Assembly: GCA_002840365.1 (NCBI GenBank)
Contig: PHAO01000001.1
Location: 441,337 to 505,336, forward strand
Source: Candidatus Dojkabacteria bacterium HGW-Dojkabacteria-1
GTDB taxonomy: Bacteria > Patescibacteriota > Dojkabacteria > SC72
Reading direction: 5' to 3'
Length of the DNA stretch: 64,000 bases
Shown here: piece by piece, positions 4,196 to 13,711 of the stretch
Numbering within the stretch: position 1 is the first letter of the stretch
Layout: every line of letters begins with the position of its first letter
Position numbers and translations under genes: made by a program
The notes under the pieces: generated by a model
Database searches by the model: none
What the model was told of the DNA's origin: nothing
Seen by the model: only the letters and a program-made list of their open reading frames with translations

Positions 4196-4273
4196 GGTGG
4201 CTATAGCTCAATTGGTTAGAGCATCGGTTTGTGGAACCGAGGGTTGTGGGTTCAAGTCCCATTAGCCACCCCA
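4196..4273 (+). tRNA. tRNA-His(GUG): tRNA-His (anticodon GUG) with encoded G-1 and 3' CCA
   Basis: Cloverleaf folded by hand. Acceptor GTGGCTA pairs with TAGCCAC; D arm GCTC/GAGC; anticodon stem TCGGT/ACCGA with loop TTGTGGA; T arm GTGGG-TTCAAGT-CCCAT. An extra 5' G pairs with discriminator C. CCA is present in the genome. Confidence 0.85.
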
Positions 4274-5718
4274 TTTCCCAGTTTTTTGAAATCTACCAGC
4301 AAATCAAAGGGGTTTATGTAATCATATAGCAGATTCTTTCCATCCCATCTGATATTCGAAAGTACAGTGTTAATTAATATTGCTCTTTCTTCATCCAAAG
4401 CATTCTCAAATAGTTCTCCACTGTGCTTTGCAAGTTCTAATACATATTTAGCAGTGATATAGAAAGTATCCTCTGTTTGTTCTGATGAACGGATTTTATC
4501 AGTAACTTCTTTATACAACCTGTCATACTCTTTCGCTTTTTCTTCATAGAAACTACTAGTAATACTACCATCAACATATAGATCATAATTCTTTGATTTC
4601 ATTCTAGAATACCTTTCCTGTTCCCTGCGTAGATTTCTTACTCTGGAAATAGATACTTCTAAATTAGTTTCATTGATTGATTTCAAATCATTTAATATCT
4701 TCTCTGCATCATTTTCTGTTAATCTAATCCTATCAAATGCTTCTGCAAACTGCTTACTCAATTCTTCTTCACTTACATACTGGGCTCCATGTTTACCCTT
4801 ATATTCAGTACAACAATAGGAGTTCTTCCCATTATGCTCCTCTGGGCACATAGAATAACCGCAAATAGCACATCTTATTAATCTTCTATACTTAAATGGT
4901 TTCCCAGCATACTTACCTTTGTTTTTGTTTTGTAATCTACCTTCTCTAATTTCTTGTACTCTGTTAAATAAATCCTCTGATATTATTGTTTCATAACAAT
5001 GAGGGTATTCAATATTCTTCTTCTGATACAAGATGATACCTATATAAAACTTGTTTGTAAGTATTCTAGCAATTTGAGAACCAGCAAATTCAACATTAAA
5101 TAATTCTAGGATTTTCTTTCTCAATGTCCTATCAGAATAACTATTGGTTGAATATAACTCATACATCTTCTTTACAATCAGAGATTCCTCATAGTTAACT
5201 TCAACTGTTTTCTCCTTGTCATTAATTGTAATGTTGTTATATCCATAGGGTGCTTTCGTTAGTAATTCTCCATTCCTCATCTTTTGTTCAAATCTCCTTT
5301 TGACATTATCCCTTATTGAATCAGAATAATACTGTGCTAGTGCAACCCCCATTGAGAATTTAAATAGGTCCACAGCGGGGCTAGATGCCCGTAGAACGAG
5401 GTTATCTGATGGGAAGTGTAATTGTACCTTTTCTCTCTTTCGAAGGTCATCAAACAACGGTAAATAGCGATTGAAATCTCTTAATAACCTATCTATCTTA
5501 TCAGTAATAAGTGCAACTGTTTTATTCGTTTCTTCTATCGTTTTTAATACTTCTTCAAATTGCTTTCTATTCCCTTTATATGCACTTTCTGAAATATCAA
5601 ATATATCCTTATCACTGTATTCTAGATTATTACTCTTTGCATATTCTATTAATCTTGGTATCTGCTGTTCTGTTGATTGCTCATCTGTTGATACTCTCGC
5701 TAATAGAATTGCTCTCAT
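4252..5718 (-). CDS. large serine recombinase (resolvase/invertase catalytic domain + recombinase domain + zinc ribbon)
   Basis: N-terminal 'AILLARVSTDEQ' catalytic Ser motif; 488 aa; Cys-rich C-terminal zinc ribbon (CAICGYSMC...CCTEYKGKHG); 3' end overlaps the antisense of the tRNA-His 3' end by about 22 nt. Confidence 0.85.
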   Translation of the reverse strand: MRAILLARVSTDEQSTEQQIPRLIEYAKSNNLEYSDKDIFDISESAYKGNRKQFEEVLKTIEETNKTVALITDKIDRLLRDFNRYLPLFDDLRKREKVQLHFPSDNLVLRASSPAVDLFKFSMGVALAQYYSDSIRDNVKRRFEQKMRNGELLTKAPYGYNNITINDKEKTVEVNYEESLIVKKMYELYSTNSYSDRTLRKKILELFNVEFAGSQIARILTNKFYIGIILYQKKNIEYPHCYETIISEDLFNRVQEIREGRLQNKNKGKYAGKPFKYRRLIRCAICGYSMCPEEHNGKNSYCCTEYKGKHGAQYVSEEELSKQFAEAFDRIRLTENDAEKILNDLKSINETNLEVSISRVRNLRREQERYSRMKSKNYDLYVDGSITSSFYEEKAKEYDRLYKEVTDKIRSSEQTEDTFYITAKYVLELAKHSGELFENALDEERAILINTVLSNIRWDGKNLLYDYINPFDLLVDFKKLGNGVANGT

Positions 5719-8700
5719 ACTTTAAAAGATTCTACAATTTGGATTTCTTCTTCGCTTAAATCATATATTTTATAAAGGATTGTATCGATTTCAGATTCAA
5801 TATTTTTTATTTCGAGTACCATTTCTTTTAACTTTTTCTGCTTATCTTTAATCCAATTGTGTAATTTCTCCTTTTCTTCAATTGAAAGTCGTGTTTTCTT
5901 TTTATCAAGTATCTCTACAATTTGATTCCAACCATATTCGAGTATGTTTTTTAAATCTAAATGATATTCATTACCCAAAAATACACTGGTTTCTTCATTT
6001 AACATATAAAAATCTTTATACTTACTTTCAAGATCAAAAACATATTGCTCTATAACTAATATATCCTCTTTGTTAGTATCCTTGATTGGGAATAGGAGTA
6101 ATGGTCCCTTATCAACTTGTAATAATTCCCCAAGTAATTTACCTCTATTTCTGAACCAAAAATTACTAATAGTTGAATTAAGTAGTGCAGTTAAATACTT
6201 TAAATTAATCCTATCAGTAACAATAAAGTTGAGTGCTCTTGAACCATAATATTCAGAGATTGTATAGAAGAATGTAGGATATTTTACTCTAACACCACAC
6301 ACAATTTTATCTCCTGCTTTAAAGAACTGCTCATTTCTCTCCCTATGTAAATAATAGTAGGGTTTGTTAGGAGTTTTATACTTAATTTTCGCATCAATTA
6401 ATACATCTTTGTACTTATTAAAATGAGTATATAAATTGGGGAAATCCTCTAATTTTTTATCATCAAAATTTTTTGAGGACAGGTAAATAATAAAACTATT
6501 TGTACTTCCAACAGAATATCTTGAAACATTAGTATAAAAAGGTTTAATAAATTCTCTTTCAGAAATGTTAAATTTTGTTAAATCATCCACAATAAAACAC
6601 TCATCTGGTGCTCCCACAATTCCCTGTGCTACTTCATTATCATTCAGTGTAAATGTTCTACTCTTTGAAATCTTATCTATAACTTTTTCAAATTTCTCAT
6701 CTGAAAACACTATATTCCCATTACCTATTTTCTCCCTATCTATTGTTGCGTCAATACTTTTTATACTGTCAGAATAGTTTATACTCCTATCATTTAATAC
6801 AAGTTGAATCAAATCCAAACCAATCTGTTTATCTAATATCTTTGTATATTCAACTTTGTATCTATTCTTTACATTCTTTTCTTTTTTAAAAACAAATATC
6901 ATAGTTTGAATACCTGCATCTTTAAAAACTTGAAATCCTCCAAAATCAAAATAGGAGATGATTTCACCCTCATTAAGTATCTTTTCCCTAAAAATTGATG
7001 CACCAGCATTTGTAATCCAATTATTAGGAGCAATAAAACTTAAATATCCATTTTCCTTTAACAAATCAATAGATAAACAAGCAAAATAGGTCCAAATATC
7101 CATTTTCCCTTGATAATAAGGTCCATCATGTAATCCAGTAAATGCTGTTTTATTAGTATATTCTTTAATGTAAGGAGGATTCGCGACTATTACATCAAAA
7201 CCACCATTGTCAATGATATCTTTATACTCAACCCCCCAATTAAATGCTTTATCCCCAGCGATAGCGGGATCATCTATTAGTGAATTACCACACTTAATAT
7301 TTTTATCTAAATTCTGTAAAGGTTCAGTATTCTTCGCTGTTTTTAACCATAATGCAAGTTTTGTAATTTCCACACTTTCTTTGTTAAGATCTACCCCAAA
7401 GAGGTTATTAAGTAGGATTCCATTATTTACACTCGCAGGATCATAATCATCAATTTCAAGATTGAGTTTCCCGGACTCTCTTATATTCTGCAATTTCTCT
7501 TCAAATCTCCTAGCATATTCTTGTTTAAGATAAGTATGTGCTTGATTTAAAATTGCACCACTACCACAAGCAGGATCCAATATCTTAATTTCATTCAATT
7601 TATCGGGATTTTCTTCTAAAAACCTTCCTACTGTATTTTCTACTATGTATTTTGTAATATATTCTGGCGTGTAGAATATTCCATCTTTTTTCCTTCTTCC
7701 CTTTTTTTCAGTAACTGTTAAATCTTCAATCATCTCCAATCTATTATCACTATCCTTTACTTGCATTACATTCTCTTTAATCCTTTCTAAATCAGAAATA
7801 CTTTGCTCAAATATGTGTCCTAGGATATTAACATTAATATCTGTTTGATAATCATATTCCGCAAGTTCTAATATCCTTTTCCAAAAACTATCTAGAATGA
7901 TAAGGTTATCCAATATCTCATCTTTCTTAAACAATCCCCCATTATAAGCATTAATTGGTGGAGTAACTCTTGAATTTCCCTCATCAATAGATTTAAACAA
8001 ACCCTTAAACTCATTCCAAACTCTCTCATCACTACTAGCAAAAGAACTCAATGCTCTCTCATAGGTATTCTTCACTATTTCGTAGGGTAATAATTCTGTT
8101 GTATCTTCACAGAATAGTGTAAATACAATTCTATCTAGTAATTTCTGTGTTTTCTCTAATAATACCTCTGCTGATATACCTTTGTTATTTTCTAATAGAT
8201 GGTTAAGCAATCCCAATCTAACCTCTTTATACTTTGCATAATAATCATTTGTTATATCCTGCTCTTGTTGATTACTTTCCAAAGATAGTACATCTACAAC
8301 ACTGTTATCCTCTTTCTTAATTAGGTTATCTTTTGATAGTAAGAAATAGAATCTTTTAAATTCCTGCTCATCTAGTAAATCTAATACCATAAATCTTTCA
8401 AAATATTCTTGTGATCTAGATTTACTATATAAACGAATCTCTTTGAAATTTGATACTATAATCCATTTACATTTATCTTCTTTACTTGCATAGTTAAATG
8501 CTTGGTCAACAGGTGTTTGCTTTGTATCTCTGTGTTGCTTTTTATCTAAATCTGTTTTTGCATCCTTTAACTCAATTACAACACGAGTATCCTTATTATC
8601 TTTTGTAAAGAACCCTAAACTTCCATCTGGTTCACCAACATTGTTTTCTATTCTTGGATGTTGTATTAAGGTATATTCTTGCTCTGCGGAAGTTACATCA

Positions 8701-8900
8701 TCATAGTTAAGGATATTTTCAAAAAAGGTTTGTAGGAATTTACCTTGAATGCTTTTTTCTTTTGTATTTTCTAAATCACTATCCTTTAATGCTCTCTGCC
8801 ATTTATCTATTAATGTGTTAATCTCCTCTAATTTCTTTCCTGTTGGAAACTCAAAATTTGTGTATTTCTGCTGTAATAATTTCTTGTTAATTAGATTCAT
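5715..8900 (-). CDS. Type IIG/IIL restriction-modification enzyme (MmeI-like single-chain endonuclease plus N6-adenine methyltransferase)
   Basis: 1061 aa. N-terminal PD-(D/E)xK-type motif (EPDGSLGFF...VVIELKDAK). MTase motif I 'ILDPACGSGAILN' and motif IV 'VIVANPPYIKE' (gamma-class NPPY). Long C-terminal TRD-like region. 4-nt overlap with the recombinase gene. Confidence 0.7.
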   Translation of the reverse strand: MNLINKKLLQQKYTNFEFPTGKKLEEINTLIDKWQRALKDSDLENTKEKSIQGKFLQTFFENILNYDDVTSAEQEYTLIQHPRIENNVGEPDGSLGFFTKDNKDTRVVIELKDAKTDLDKKQHRDTKQTPVDQAFNYASKEDKCKWIIVSNFKEIRLYSKSRSQEYFERFMVLDLLDEQEFKRFYFLLSKDNLIKKEDNSVVDVLSLESNQQEQDITNDYYAKYKEVRLGLLNHLLENNKGISAEVLLEKTQKLLDRIVFTLFCEDTTELLPYEIVKNTYERALSSFASSDERVWNEFKGLFKSIDEGNSRVTPPINAYNGGLFKKDEILDNLIILDSFWKRILELAEYDYQTDINVNILGHIFEQSISDLERIKENVMQVKDSDNRLEMIEDLTVTEKKGRRKKDGIFYTPEYITKYIVENTVGRFLEENPDKLNEIKILDPACGSGAILNQAHTYLKQEYARRFEEKLQNIRESGKLNLEIDDYDPASVNNGILLNNLFGVDLNKESVEITKLALWLKTAKNTEPLQNLDKNIKCGNSLIDDPAIAGDKAFNWGVEYKDIIDNGGFDVIVANPPYIKEYTNKTAFTGLHDGPYYQGKMDIWTYFACLSIDLLKENGYLSFIAPNNWITNAGASIFREKILNEGEIISYFDFGGFQVFKDAGIQTMIFVFKKEKNVKNRYKVEYTKILDKQIGLDLIQLVLNDRSINYSDSIKSIDATIDREKIGNGNIVFSDEKFEKVIDKISKSRTFTLNDNEVAQGIVGAPDECFIVDDLTKFNISEREFIKPFYTNVSRYSVGSTNSFIIYLSSKNFDDKKLEDFPNLYTHFNKYKDVLIDAKIKYKTPNKPYYYLHRERNEQFFKAGDKIVCGVRVKYPTFFYTISEYYGSRALNFIVTDRINLKYLTALLNSTISNFWFRNRGKLLGELLQVDKGPLLLFPIKDTNKEDILVIEQYVFDLESKYKDFYMLNEETSVFLGNEYHLDLKNILEYGWNQIVEILDKKKTRLSIEEKEKLHNWIKDKQKKLKEMVLEIKNIESEIDTILYKIYDLSEEEIQIVESFKV

Positions 8901-8912
8901 AGTATATAGTAA

Positions 8913-10064
8913 TTATAAATTGTTTCCACCAACATTAATAGTATCAGTATAACTCTTCAAATCCAATGGTTTGTAGGTTTTTAAATAATTGCTTATAAAT
9001 TCAAAACATTCAAGGTTATCTTCAACAATATTTATACTATTCATTTTATACTTTATCCCATACCAACTTCTGCTGGAATATACACTTTCAATTATCTTCC
9101 GAAATTCTCTTACTCCGAATGTTTTACAGTATTCAATGAAACCATAGATAGATAAGAGGTTGTTTAACTTAATATCTGGATTATTACTAACTAACTCTCT
9201 GAAAAACAACTCTTTATTATCTATTGAGCAGTTTAATAGATTGTAGTTACTAACAATATCATTCCAAACACTTCTCAATACTGATAATGATATATCACTA
9301 TCACATACCTGCACTAAATTGAAATCCCTTTTGAAAACACTACGAATCTTCTGAATACTGTTATATCTTACTTCAATTCTTAATATCTCAAATTTCTTTT
9401 GGCTGTTTATACTATCAAAGATATTAAATTGTATAGCATTTCCTTTCTCAATAGATCTAGAATCGCTTATCCTTCCCTTTTGTAAATCTTTCTTCTTATC
9501 ATACAGAATTACCTCAAATGAATTAGTATGGAATCTAATACTATCTCCCTTATTTCTATAATCCTTTTCTGTTAAATCATACCTTAAACTTAAATCTGTT
9601 TTAGAAACTTCCTTTGTTATGAAATAAGGTATTACATATTCAGGTAAGGGTATATTCTTTGAAAAATGGACTTTACATACTAATGCTTTTTTCAGTACAT
9701 CCGATGATACCTCTACACTCATCTTTCTTAATGAATCTGATAACTTTTCAACTACATTCTCTATATCTTCATTCCTTAACTCATCAAAATTGTTTAAGAA
9801 CACTATCTTTGGGGCGGAGAATTGAATATACAGATAGATTAATGGTAGAGCATTTACCATTTTTTTTCTTAATGTAAGTTGCGGTTTATATATTCTATTC
9901 TTGTAATCTGCTTGTGTAGGGTTGTTATATGCTTCGATATACCCCCTTGCTCCAAAACGAGAGTAGGGCGGATAGTAGAAATTGTAGGTATTCGGAGTAA
10001 AAGCATTGTGATCTAATATCTTAAAATCCTTTTCGTTTAATCTTAATGTAATTGTATCGATCAT
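8913..10064 (-). CDS. Rep_trans-family (pT181 RepC/D-like) rolling-circle replication initiator
   Basis: 383 aa; motifs 'VILYDKKKD' and 'ILRIEVRY' resemble the 'RIYNKKQE' and 'RVEIELKR' signatures of the pT181 Rep family; N-terminal 'MIDTITLRL' similar to Rep_trans N-termini. Confidence 0.5.
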   Translation of the reverse strand: MIDTITLRLNEKDFKILDHNAFTPNTYNFYYPPYSRFGARGYIEAYNNPTQADYKNRIYKPQLTLRKKMVNALPLIYLYIQFSAPKIVFLNNFDELRNEDIENVVEKLSDSLRKMSVEVSSDVLKKALVCKVHFSKNIPLPEYVIPYFITKEVSKTDLSLRYDLTEKDYRNKGDSIRFHTNSFEVILYDKKKDLQKGRISDSRSIEKGNAIQFNIFDSINSQKKFEILRIEVRYNSIQKIRSVFKRDFNLVQVCDSDISLSVLRSVWNDIVSNYNLLNCSIDNKELFFRELVSNNPDIKLNNLLSIYGFIEYCKTFGVREFRKIIESVYSSRSWYGIKYKMNSINIVEDNLECFEFISNYLKTYKPLDLKSYTDTINVGGNNL

Positions 10065-10068
10065 ATTT

Positions 10069-10341
10069 TTATTTTTCTAATTTACTCACTCTACAACCAC
10101 TGTTTGTACCCTTTTTAACTATTTGTACTCTTTCATTGATTTGCATTAATGTGTATATGTACAATGAAAGAGGATTAGTAAGTTCCTCTTGGATAATTGG
10201 AGTAGGATATTCTTTTATTAGTACATTCCGAACCACTTTTCTCATTACAAAGCACAAAAGATACCAATTTAGGTATCTCTTTGATTTTCCCTGGGAGTGA
10301 AGATATAAAATATCATTCTGCCGCCAGTATCGGAACCTCAA
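10069..10341 (-). CDS. small hypothetical protein inside the island
   Basis: 90-aa ORF co-directional with island genes, 4 nt upstream of rep; no motif recognised; may not be real. Confidence 0.25.
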   Translation of the reverse strand: MRFRYWRQNDILYLHSQGKSKRYLNWYLLCFVMRKVVRNVLIKEYPTPIIQEELTNPLSLYIYTLMQINERVQIVKKGTNSGCRVSKLEK

Positions 10342-10544
10342 AGAGGTTGGGCAGTTTTAATATTTATATAACTAATTATAACACAATTTTTTGGACAACA
10401 AAAACTAGCAACTACATTAACAATTGCTCATGGTTAGGAAATAGGTTTTTGAAGTTATTTAGGAACAGGGTAGAATTTATAGATTTAATTGATTCAATAA
10501 ATTTCTGTTCAAAATACGCCCACTGCTTCACCCCATCTTACCTA

Positions 10545-11909
10545 CTAACTACTCGTAGTCCAAGTAACACCACCATACCTATCATTAATATTAGCTTTCT
10601 TGTTTGAATATATTTCATTCAATATTTTTGGTACTGCAGCTAAATCCTTTGGTATTTGAAATAGATGCTCAACAACCTTCCCTCCCTTTGAATCTCGTAC
10701 CCTTTGATCAATAACTAAATAAGCATTAGTAAAAAAATCATACGGAATATACTCACCACCAGGCAATATATCATCAACAGCTCTAGCATGCATTCTCCAA
10801 TTAGACATTTGTTTAATTGCAGCTACCCAATCACTAGGAGTTCTATTTAAATGCCTCGTGGTATTAAGAGACCTTACAACTGTATTGAAATCTATATTCT
10901 TTCTTTCTGCATCTGTTCTTAAAACCTTAGTATACATATAGTCCTCAACACCTACATTAGGTGTGTAATGAGTAATTGCTCTCATACCTGAGACATAGTT
11001 AGCAACCTTACTCATCAAAGCACCACCAGGAAGTGTAATAAACTTTTTCTTATTCTCTATTTGATATCCTAATTGAGTAGGCCCAACAGGAGTAGTAAGT
11101 AGTGGTTTACCACTTTCTTTTTCCATTATCGCAAACAAATCTTTTGTCCCAACAGCAGTTAATTTTCCTCTTACCAAATTGTCATACATAGTTCTAAAAG
11201 GAGTCTTAACTAAAAGACCCCTTTCATCATTAAAACTAAGAATTGTTTCAGCATCCATTTGATATACAAAATCAGGAGCATATCCCTTTACTATTTGTGC
11301 ATAAAGGAAATTAGAAACATCTCTTAATGCTCTAACCTTACCTTTATTCAAATCACTAGAATCTTTTTGTTGCCTAATTAAAAAAGCTCTGCTTTCTCCC
11401 TCTCTTTCATCAATCTCTGCTATCTCAACAGGAATATCCCAAGCAGTAGCAGCATCAATATCTTCAGTATTAGGTTTGCGAGTAATTATTCTTCTAATAC
11501 TTTCCTCTTTTAAATGCTTCTTAAGTAGAGAATCTATACGGTTATACATCTCTTCTCCAATTCTTGGTGATGCTCCTCCTCCATTGTTACATACTAATAG
11601 AAAATCCAGATCGATATTCGAATCTTTTGCTTGTACAAGTAAGTCTTGAAAAGATTTCTCAAACATTGAAGATGTTAAGTATGATTCATCCTCTTCCCAA
11701 AGGGAAATAACTACGCAACCACGAGGTCTTTTTCTTTCAACTTTGTTCTCATTTAAAGACTGTTCCAATTCTGTTACACCTTCTGAATACATTTCTAAAA
11801 TATTCTCTCTTAACACCTCGTTAGGATTTACTTCTGTAGCCTCTATACTGTTGTTAGGTTCCATATACATATACATATATAGGTTAATAATAGATGATAA
11901 CATATTCAA
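10545..11909 (-). CDS. island cargo protein of unknown family
   Basis: 454-aa ORF, first gene of the minus-strand island block; no Walker, NTase, nuclease or capsid signature recognised; three in-frame ATGs within (ATGTAT)3 at the 5' end. Confidence 0.5.
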   Translation of the reverse strand: MNMLSSIINLYMYMYMEPNNSIEATEVNPNEVLRENILEMYSEGVTELEQSLNENKVERKRPRGCVVISLWEEDESYLTSSMFEKSFQDLLVQAKDSNIDLDFLLVCNNGGGASPRIGEEMYNRIDSLLKKHLKEESIRRIITRKPNTEDIDAATAWDIPVEIAEIDEREGESRAFLIRQQKDSSDLNKGKVRALRDVSNFLYAQIVKGYAPDFVYQMDAETILSFNDERGLLVKTPFRTMYDNLVRGKLTAVGTKDLFAIMEKESGKPLLTTPVGPTQLGYQIENKKKFITLPGGALMSKVANYVSGMRAITHYTPNVGVEDYMYTKVLRTDAERKNIDFNTVVRSLNTTRHLNRTPSDWVAAIKQMSNWRMHARAVDDILPGGEYIPYDFFTNAYLVIDQRVRDSKGGKVVEHLFQIPKDLAAVPKILNEIYSNKKANINDRYGGVTWTTSS

Positions 11910-12236: not shown

Positions 12237-12467
12237 ATGAATAAAAAAATAGCAGTTATCGAAGATGATGGAATATTACTTAAGGCATTAAACATAGAGC
12301 TACTAAGTAAAGGATTTGAAGTAATTTCTGCAACAGATGGAGAGACAGGATTAGGATTGTATATAGCAAAAGCAGTAGTAGAAGCTCATGGTGGTAAAAT
12401 ATGGTTTGAATCTAAAAGTAGAAAAGGAACTACCTTTTACTTTTCTCTTCCAAAAGGTAATAATTAA
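12237..12467 (+). pseudogene. chimeric remnant of a two-component system (receiver N-terminus fused to histidine-kinase HATPase C-terminus)
   Basis: 76-aa ORF: '[36 protein letters not shown]' is receiver-like; '[35 protein letters not shown]' matches the HK G2 box and C-terminal segment; an in-frame deletion scar. Confidence 0.5.
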
Positions 12468-13066: not shown

Positions 13067-13711
13067 ATGAAAAAGCTTCTTGCTTTAATAGTCCTACTGG
13101 TACTGTGCACTGGCATTGTTCTGGTAACAGAGAAAGTTACAGCGCAAGGTCAGGACACTTGCCCGCAAGGTAATGGCTGGGTTAAGGTTGATGACTTGAG
13201 TGGATATTCTTACACTTTTGATGCTCCCGAAGGGACATTGATTGTGGAGAGCTGCTACAAGGCATCTACCACTGTTGTGTTTGAAACTTACAATCCCCCC
13301 CAGGAATCAGTGACTATTACAAGCACTGTAATAAATCCTGGAGGTCAGATTGCTGAGTTATCACATGCAAGTTTCAAGCTTGTAGTAAAACCAACGGCAA
13401 CACCTCCGATTGAGGAAACGCCTACAGCAACTCCTCCGGTCGAGGAAACGCCTACAGCAACACCTCCGGTCGAGGAAACACCAACGGCAACGCCTCCAGT
13501 TGAGGAAACGCCTACAGCAACACCTCCGGTCGAGGAAACACCAACGGCAACACCTCCAGTTGAGGAAACGCCAAGAGCAACAGAGACACCAGGAGAAATT
13601 ATCACTACGGTTCAAACCGGTGGTGGTGGTATCGCTCCTCTCTTAATCCTGCTAGGCTTTGGAGGTGCATTCCTTCTTTGGGCATTTTTTCGCTCTCGCA
13701 TCGCGAGGTAA
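13067..13711 (+). CDS. secreted cell-surface protein with a conserved N-terminal domain, Thr/Pro/Glu-rich decapeptide repeats and a C-terminal TM anchor
   Basis: Signal peptide. An N-terminal domain of about 80 aa is paralogous to the protein at 37676-38785. TATPPVEETP repeated about 6 times. C-terminal 'GGGG-hydrophobic-RSRIAR' sorting-signal-like tail. GC-richer than the genome by eye. Confidence 0.7.
   Translation: MKKLLALIVLLVLCTGIVLVTEKVTAQGQDTCPQGNGWVKVDDLSGYSYTFDAPEGTLIVESCYKASTTVVFETYNPPQESVTITSTVINPGGQIAELSHASFKLVVKPTATPPIEETPTATPPVEETPTATPPVEETPTATPPVEETPTATPPVEETPTATPPVEETPRATETPGEIITTVQTGGGGIAPLLILLGFGGAFLLWAFFRSRIAR
13391..13590 (+). repeat. 30-nt tandem repeat (about 6.5 copies) encoding the TATPP(V/I)EETP linker
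   Basis: Near-identical 30-mers 'cc(a/t)ac(g/a)gcaac(a/g/t)cctcc(g/a)(a/g)t(t/c)gaggaaac(g/a)' seen directly. Confidence 0.85.

Follow-up and report, generated by a model that had tools for sequence, protein, structure and literature searches.

Integrative elements that use a rolling-circle initiator are already known as a kind of system. In ICEBs1, Tn916 and many integrative mobilizable elements, Rep_trans-type proteins maintain the excised form (PMC5704250), and in actinomycetes, integrative elements with an integrase and a tRNA site also carry a rolling-circle Rep (PMC3218068). In gpII, the gene II protein of filamentous phages, the residue joined covalently to DNA has been mapped experimentally to Tyr-197 (PMC5405960). 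We examined a 64,000-nucleotide (nt) stretch of the genome of Candidatus Dojkabacteria bacterium HGW-Dojkabacteria-1 (contig PHAO01000001.1, positions 441,337 to 505,336; hereafter the window), in which an open reading frame (ORF) at 8913-10064 on the minus strand encodes a predicted gpII-like rolling-circle initiator, or nicking-joining enzyme, of 383 amino acids (aa), here called Rep. We propose, with moderate confidence, that Rep is the nicking-joining core gene product, of gpII/Rep_trans type, of a 6.3-kb integrative element at tRNA-His, which would be excised as a circle, bound by Rep at its leader and replicated by the rolling-circle mode.

The Rep protein and its link to gpII

The ORF encodes 383 aa, as an earlier note on this DNA had stated, and the two motifs quoted there are real, VILYDKKKD occupying residues 185-193 and ILRIEVRY residues 227-234. 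The exact database copy of the protein is labelled a hypothetical protein of Candidatus Dojkabacteria HGW-Dojkabacteria-1, and none of its 386 word-indexed homologues, nearly all of about 380 aa, carries a Pfam domain. The family is nevertheless large: an exhaustive profile search returned at least 1380 cluster representatives (50% identity clusters) at E ≤ 1e-3, 623 of them at E ≤ 1e-30. A search of PDB sequences with the family profile gave only a chance match to SPT5. Besides the proposed catalytic tyrosine, Y188, the key residues are D3, H133, N171, G173, K190, D193, R229, E231 and R233. In an alignment of 47 relatives (A1), Y188 and all of these except D3 are invariant, as is D189, and D3 is conserved in at least 90%. 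In the deeper set of 144 representatives, at 27-37% identity, Y188, K190, E231 and R233 remain invariant, with D3, H133, N171 and R229 at least 90% conserved; D193, like R229, is at least 90% conserved across 74-144 relatives. Conserved residues fall on two predicted strands, 183-189, which bears the tyrosine, and 227-234, which bears the R-x-E motif.

An AlphaFold2 model built on A1 (pLDDT 85.8, pTM 0.84) has eight strands, four to each of two groups, with a helical domain after them at the C-terminus, and shows a crescent-shaped, TBP-like beta-sheet catalytic domain with pseudo-twofold symmetry. Foldseek comparison of this model with models of viral proteins (BFVD) gave seven matches at E ≤ 0.001. 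The top five ranged from E 3e-8 to 5e-5; the strongest three are unnamed, and the two named ones belong to Inoviridae, one being a 'Replication-associated protein G2P'. Pfam scans of 74 diverse relatives, taken individually, pointed the same way. Phage_CRI (PF05144), the N-terminal domain of gpII, matched 9 of the 74 with a best E of 5.8e-7, and relative P0259 exceeded its curated threshold (33.8 bits vs 21.7, residues 68-234). Another relative gave a weak G2P_X_C match in its C-terminal part. Rep_trans (PF02486) matched 1 of the 74, weakly, at E 0.026.

The link to gpII was also recovered by comparison of profiles. When the alignment of 144 representatives was compared by hhalign with one of 44 relatives of M13 gpII, the two aligned at E 8.2e-5 over 259 columns, residues 77-347 of Rep against 88-370 of gpII. 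The controls were negative: P stayed at or above 0.023 for the alignment in reverse, for 20 versions with shuffled columns, for an alignment of an unrelated recombinase and for the RepC family of pT181. No signal was obtained against alignments of the pT181 RepC family and of a small, diverse Rep_trans set (P ≥ 0.11); the search for RepC homologues gave only sequences more than 80% identical and was of little use. The family hidden Markov model (HMM) did not match the single M13 gpII sequence significantly, though Y188 was paired with Y197. In the profile alignment, Y188 pairs with M13 gpII Y197 and K190 with K199, both pairs being invariant in both alignments; S83 and K86 pair with S94 and K97, N171 with N186, D193 with E202, R229 with R243 and E231 with E245. 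Of the carboxylate triad of Rep_trans (D46, D142, E214), the first and third positions are fitted by D3 and E231, and the second is occupied by His133.

Because their residues pair with catalytic residues of gpII and RepD, the two motifs singled out in the earlier note are the catalytic ones, and they hold the invariant Y188, K190, E231 and R233. The proposed active-site tyrosine, Y188, is conserved and is aligned by the profile comparison with Tyr-197 of gpII. The same note had called the protein a pT181-family rolling-circle Rep and had held that this would fail if PF02486 found no match. The fold of a rolling-circle initiator stands, but the pT181 family does not, since the PF02486 HMM finds nothing in the 383-aa protein even at E ≤ 1, the RepC profile gives no signal and the sequence is gpII-like. 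As judged from the profiles and the predicted model, Rep is a divergent tyrosine nicking-joining enzyme of the gpII (Phage_CRI)/Rep_trans superfamily, whose nearest sequence family is gpII and not pT181.

The tRNA-His island and its relatives

The earlier note had placed the gene inside an integrated island, and the serine recombinase, tRNA-His and end repeats found here agree with that placement. The island spans approximately 4267-10536 at the 3' end of a tRNA-His (GTG) gene (4197-4273, plus strand; found by ARAGORN, Rfam tRNA 70.9 bits), which is the integration target and whose last bases form the end repeat. This repeat, the 8-mer CACCCCAT, has just two copies in the window, both on the plus strand, one at the tRNA 3' end (4267-4274) and one at the far boundary (10529-10536). 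Adjoining the second copy, 10507-10535 repeats the tRNA 3' end in degenerate form. When another copy of that tRNA end was sought with up to three mismatches allowed, none turned up; the far boundary came to light only through L013, a metagenome contig of 6159 nt that carries a homologous element with a Rep 83% identical to that of the window. L013 aligns to the window from exactly 10535 inwards, and the 7-nt core TGGGGTG, the complement of the end repeat, stands exactly at both of its ends. The ends of L013 and the two copies of CACCCCAT together give an island of about 6.3 kb. Ends at the core are what an assembly graph would be expected to yield if several junction forms (integrated, excised and empty) coexisted in the sample.

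All genes of the island lie on the minus strand. A large serine recombinase (4252-5718; Pfam Resolvase, Recombinase and Zn_ribbon_recom) has 488 aa as integrated, its last four codons and stop lying in tRNA sequence past the end repeat. Between it and Rep is the cargo, a single-polypeptide Type IIG (MmeI/Eco57I-like) restriction-modification (R-M) enzyme of 1061 aa (5715-8900), with Pfam matches to Eco57I (3e-41), N6_Mtase, MmeI_N, MmeI_hel, MmeI_Mtase and TaqI_C. The first gene of the core operon is a small conserved ORF of about 58 aa (10069-10245) with the motif LxxLMQINERVQIVKK. This 58-aa gene, with a putative start at M33, is most likely the content of a mechanically called 90-aa ORF (10069-10341). 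By eye, though not by tblastn, it resembles ORFs of 48-60 aa upstream of Rep in two related loci, L001 and L007, where the sequences '...LLIKINNKVKLVK' and '...VLMKINKREKLVK' are found. A 454-aa gene at 10545-11909 was considered as part of the island and rejected, as it lies past the end repeat and has no homologue beside related elements; it is chromosomal.

We surveyed the architecture of related loci in the best 80 of at least 341 relatives found by a scan of species-representative genomes. The order Rep, variable cargo, recombinase, tRNA recurs across these 80 genomes of many phyla, and the fuller order in homologue neighbourhoods, all on one strand, is small ORF, SpoVG-like gene, Rep, variable cargo and large serine recombinase. 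In 58 of 80 loci, Rep is followed downstream on its own strand by a full-length recombinase (at least 450 aa); among loci whose downstream sequence reaches at least 4.6 kb, just 4 gave no recombinase match, and a few others have short fragments only. In 40 of the 80, the recombinase 3' end has a convergent tRNA gene (His, Asn, Arg, Gln, Pro or Asp) no more than 150 nt away, and in 37 the two overlap. A SpoVG-like gene of about 90-100 aa lies directly upstream of Rep and overlaps its start in 57 of 80 (for example, L010 1288-1584 and L008 7736-8035). The window element lacks this gene and keeps just the small upstream ORF. The cargo slot of other elements holds a Type IIG or Type III R-M system, a DNA methylase, a helix-turn-helix (HTH) gene or nothing; Type IIG enzymes occur in the window, L001 and L013, a Type III system in L008 (9362-13971) and a C5 methylase in L021 (6023-7144). 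The minimal elements, of about 3-4 kb, consist of just the SpoVG-like gene, Rep and the recombinase. Repeats of 7-16 nt that start at the tRNA terminus recur 1.5-7 kb upstream of Rep in many of the 37 loci scanned, and their positions give element sizes of about 6-15 kb. Six loci (L039, L068, L085, L087, L089 and L093) have a second, larger serine recombinase (528-599 aa), encoded on the Rep strand about 2.5-4 kb upstream of Rep; it could be one of a recombinase pair or belong to the adjacent element in a tandem array.

The recombinases of homologous elements are 33-53% identical to that of the window and the Rep proteins of the same elements 34-49%, roughly in step. One way to read this pairing is that Rep has kept its fold while serving the serine recombinase as a directionality or DNA-bending factor, or acting as a regulator, with no role as a nickase. 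Strict co-inheritance with the recombinase and divergence in step would suit such a role, as would the TBP-like fold, which is a DNA-binding saddle, and the fact that no autonomous replicon with Rep is known. However, the Tyr, Lys, Glu and Arg of the nicking centre are invariant in more than 140 relatives at about 30% identity, which is hard to explain without catalysis. We regard a purely accessory role as very doubtful, the least probable of the alternatives considered here.

The hosts, all represented by metagenome-assembled genomes, include candidate-phyla-radiation groups, Omnitrophota, Dependentiae, Rickettsiales, other Alpha- and Gammaproteobacteria, Thermodesulfobacteriota, Dehalococcoidia and others. 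One metagenome-assembled genome labelled Promethearchaeota archaeon (L034) has a complete module of Rep, recombinase and tRNA-Gln, which reflects either cross-domain spread or a binning error. The spread of the Rep family over very distant phyla implies efficient horizontal transfer, and would fit a Rep that is mainly a relaxase, nicking an oriT on the excised island and piloting the strand through the conjugation pore of a helper, so that the island would be an integrative mobilizable element in which replication is secondary or absent. There is precedent for this, as the MobT relaxases of ICESt3, Tn916 and ICEBs1 are Rep_trans-fold proteins, and most streptococcal integrative mobilizable elements have relaxases akin to rolling-circle initiators, many without a coupling protein of their own (PMC5704250). 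The elements described here are likewise small and lack transfer genes in the inspected loci. However, the sequence link of Rep is to phage gpII, including the C-terminal G2P_X-like region, and not to MobT. The gene lists of the inspected loci, taken from precomputed Pfam annotations with no systematic search made, also show no coupling protein or type IV secretion genes. Many of the hosts belong to candidate-phyla-radiation bacteria, Dependentiae or Omnitrophota, in which conjugation systems are rarely reported, and this also counts against a relaxase. Relaxase and replication roles are not mutually exclusive, but we consider it unlikely that transfer is the main function of Rep.

No described counterpart of the Rep family or of the element type was found in the searchable literature. 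It is possible, and we offer this tentatively, that these loci form a widespread and so far undescribed class of integrative rolling-circle replicons of minimal size (about 3-15 kb), built on a core of small ORF, SpoVG-like gene, gpII-like initiator and a large serine recombinase whose ORF crosses the attachment site, which would move R-M and other defence cargo between the tRNA genes of candidate-phyla-radiation and other uncultured bacteria.

The upstream leader and the attachment site

The DNA upstream of 10245 is conserved far more than third codon positions are, a pattern expected of non-coding DNA. Between the window and L013, the block 10241-10360 is 90-100% identical, vs 64% at Rep third codon positions. 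Within it, on the minus strand, are two hairpins, which we assessed as single-stranded DNA folds against 200 shuffles. The first, AAGAGATACC-TAAATT-GGTATCTTTT (10256-10281), lies directly upstream of the small ORF, is terminator-like (the terminator scan gave 2 sites vs 0.1 expected), folds with z = -4.0 and is conserved in L013. The second is a nested G+C-rich hairpin at 10318-10354, CTGCC-[AACCTC-TTT-GAGGTT]-...-GGCAG, with its inner stem at 10334-10348; its z of -3.4 was equalled by 0 of 200 shuffles, and it is 100% identical in L013. Hairpins of the form ACCTC...GAGGT stand at the equivalent position in L031, L063 and L068. Across the family, perfect hairpins of at least 7 bp peak 400-500 nt upstream of Rep, where they occur in 20 of 57 loci vs roughly 8% in other bins, and this position roughly equals that of the window hairpin once the missing SpoVG-like gene is allowed for. 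The upstream hairpin sequences are clade-specific. Rfam assigned no RNA family to the conserved leader. We regard the conserved block 10250-10360, and chiefly the nested hairpin, as the best candidate for a cis site, be it a double-strand origin and nick region or an operator.

Just beyond this block, a possible extended -10 promoter element, TGTTATAAT (10375-10383, minus strand), was read from the sequence with low confidence; it might drive an operon of the small ORF, Rep, the R-M gene and the recombinase. The consensus scan did not list it because its -35 element is poor. In one sub-clade (L033, L062, L077, L081, L083 and L095), a palindrome, TTAGCTAA-N3-4-TTAGCTAA, recurs in the same place, about 275-490 nt upstream of Rep, and looks like a clade-specific, putative protein-binding site.

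A different origin had been suggested in the earlier note, an inverted repeat lying in a 200-nt gap at 10342-10544. The repeat is present (AGCAA at 10407-10411 and TTGCT at 10424-10428), but its significance was not borne out. Its A/T-rich stem of 5-6 bp folds at -2.5 kcal/mol with z = -1.0, a value equalled by 34 of 200 shuffles, and chance alone would put about nine such perfect 5-bp repeats into this 291-nt stretch. In L013 one arm is mutated from TTGCT to TCGCT without a compensating change. With its chance-level fold and lack of conservation, the palindrome at 10407-10428 is not supported as a double-strand origin. It straddles the stop codon of the recombinase extension described below, and a run of T follows it on the minus strand, so it might act as a weak terminator. 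The gap itself had been mis-delimited, since the gene within the 90-aa ORF most likely reaches only to 10245, 10412-10528 reads as a conserved continuation of the recombinase and 10529-10536 is the end repeat.

This continuation comprises 38 codons (10415-10528) and a stop (10412-10414) on the minus strand, and joining the island ends in silico lengthens the recombinase ORF from 488 to 522 aa. The tail frame is open in both the window and L013, which differ at 10 synonymous and 7 non-synonymous codons, and the other two frames are closed. Related tail peptides occur elsewhere in the family, with LKDLFxNxKxEF in L031, L056 and L084, (I/V)Dx-LRT(E/D) in L058-L060 and a further example in L049. 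Where elements stand in tandem at one tRNA, a partial upstream recombinase ORF crosses the left repeat of the next element (L031 40-453; L084 49-753), just as expected of an attP-like junction, and the tail is read natively. Integrated recombinases end after 0-19 tRNA-derived codons, whereas the tail at circular or tandem junctions is typically 25-38 residues long (1-146 overall). Since the ORF reads through the attachment core, integration swaps the C-terminus of the recombinase. In the tentative reading given above, the recombinase would have its conserved tail of 25-38 residues only in the excised or tandem form, and this tail could switch the direction of recombination, coupled to Rep-driven amplification of copy number.

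Two observations concern other parts of the window. At 12237-12467, a 76-aa ORF resembles the N-terminus of a response-regulator receiver domain joined directly to the C-terminus of a histidine-kinase ATPase, a fusion that suggests a deletion remnant. At 13391-13500, three 30-nt tandem copies encode a Pro/Thr-rich repeat in an ORF with a sub-threshold extensin-like Pfam match, and the repeat coincides with a local rise in G+C to about 0.42.

Proposed mechanism and comparison with known systems

In the mechanism that we favor, the large serine recombinase of the element, which would also have inserted it at the tRNA-His 3' end, would first excise the island as a circle. The gpII-like Rep would then bind the conserved leader at 10250-10360 and nick a site there through Y188, after which a host helicase and polymerase would carry out rolling-circle replication, sparing the excised element from loss before it is re-integrated or transferred. 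Excision, the nick site and replication itself are proposed by analogy with gpII, RepD, ICEBs1/Tn916 and the actinomycete integrative elements. Two hints of excision, both indirect, come from L013, which begins and ends at the 7-nt repeat, and from the recombinase ORF, which is in frame across the circular junction.

A number of results weigh against this mechanism and the assignment behind it. Scans of the 383-aa protein against Pfam (including PF02486, PF05144 and PF05155), NCBIfam (including the II/X family) and PHROG gave no match, Foldseek of the model against the PDB returned nothing at E ≤ 0.001, and the hhalign probability for the gpII comparison was just 61%. At the active site, the second Rep_trans metal ligand, D142, is a histidine in this family and R189 has no conserved counterpart (I186); in Rep-Arvir, an initiator of archaeal pleolipoviruses, the Asp equivalent to the second metal ligand is dispensable (PMC13107129). 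No nick sequence is conserved family-wide, CCTC...GAGG hairpins being found upstream in just 12 of 86 loci. Finally, tblastn against 72,556 plasmids and a scan of 2.9 million IMG/VR viral contigs found no relative of Rep, so that no autonomous replicon is known to use it.

The scan of viral contigs also bears on the idea that the island derives from a filamentous phage, as its satellite or its remnant, and that the gpII-like protein makes single-stranded circles for packaging by the morphogenesis proteins of a helper inovirus. The RS1 satellite, which is packaged with the CTX phage, provides a model. Inovirus replication proteins are the nearest relatives of Rep both in sequence and among models, the elements lack structural genes, and the minimal ones are only about 3 kb long. 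However, the absence of relatives from the 2.9 million IMG/VR contigs leaves no linked inovirus in sight, and the annotated neighbourhoods of Rep relatives contain no pI/Zot-like or coat genes. The conserved partners of Rep are a recombinase and a SpoVG-like protein, not phage genes. A satellite origin therefore seems quite improbable, and we judge each of the three alternatives (relaxase, inovirus helper and accessory role) to be less likely than rolling-circle replication of the excised island by Rep.

With the assignment made here, a large protein family annotated everywhere as 'hypothetical' can be read as a rolling-circle nickase, and filamentous-phage replication proteins become linked to non-viral integrative elements. 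It also offers a first clue to the means by which small tRNA-borne islands, a common type, may persist and spread. Because the islands carry R-M systems, they bear on the movement of defence genes among unculturable organisms. The combination of Rep, serine recombinase and attachment site could become a genetic tool for these lineages, an integrating vector with a replicative phase.

Of the known systems, gpII/G2P of the Ff phages (PF05144 + PF05155) is the closest in sequence. Rep and gpII are similar in length (383 vs 410 aa) and in their first residues (MIDTITLRL vs MIDMLVLRL), and they share five collinear motifs, with Tyr-x-Lys on Tyr-197/Lys-199 and R-x-E-x-R on R243, E245 and R247 of gpII; the C-terminal helical region aligns too. 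They differ in that the Asp of the gpII 'IDATFS' strand is His133 in Rep. Furthermore, Rep resides in a recombinase/tRNA island, in a family whose neighbouring genes are recombinase, R-M, HTH and SpoVG-like genes, with no phage morphogenesis genes. RepC/RepD of the pT181 plasmids and RepSTK1 (4CWC, 4CIJ; PF02486) are the best structural matches in the PDB, where Foldseek gave nothing at E ≤ 0.001. The motif-bearing strands come in the same order, and D46, Y191, K193, E196, R212 and E214 of RepD correspond to D3, Y188, K190, D193, R229 and E231 of Rep by motif order, not by superposition (PMC4797284). However, an insertion of 20 residues separates the Tyr strand of Rep from its R-x-E strand, its C-terminal domain is unlike theirs, and Rep is not plasmid-borne.

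At the level of the whole element, integrative mobilizable elements, ICEBs1/Tn916 and the integrative and conjugative elements of actinomycetes likewise insert at the 3' ends of tRNA genes or other conserved genes and carry variable cargo and, at one end, a site-specific recombinase, and they also use a rolling-circle initiator or relaxase to maintain the excised circle (PMC5704250; PMC3218068). Their initiators are MobT, Rep_2 or the HUH protein RepSA, whereas the window family has a gpII-like one within a core of small ORF, SpoVG-like gene, Rep and a large serine recombinase spanning the attachment site, and its hosts are mostly uncultured candidate-phyla-radiation, Omnitrophota, Dependentiae and proteobacterial lineages. 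Rep-Arvir (RepSNJ2) of the archaeal pleolipoviruses is similar in being a Rep_trans-fold initiator recognisable only by structure; the element that encodes it also integrates, and its genes are arranged differently once it is excised and circularised (PMC13107129). However, Rep-Arvir is archaeal, with DUF7845, a wHTH domain and the Tyr motif KHYYM, and excision there restores the replication operon, not a recombinase tail. Set against these systems, the novelty appears to lie in an initiator family of gpII type, in its constant pairing with a serine recombinase whose ORF spans the attachment site, in the SpoVG-like partner and in the host range.

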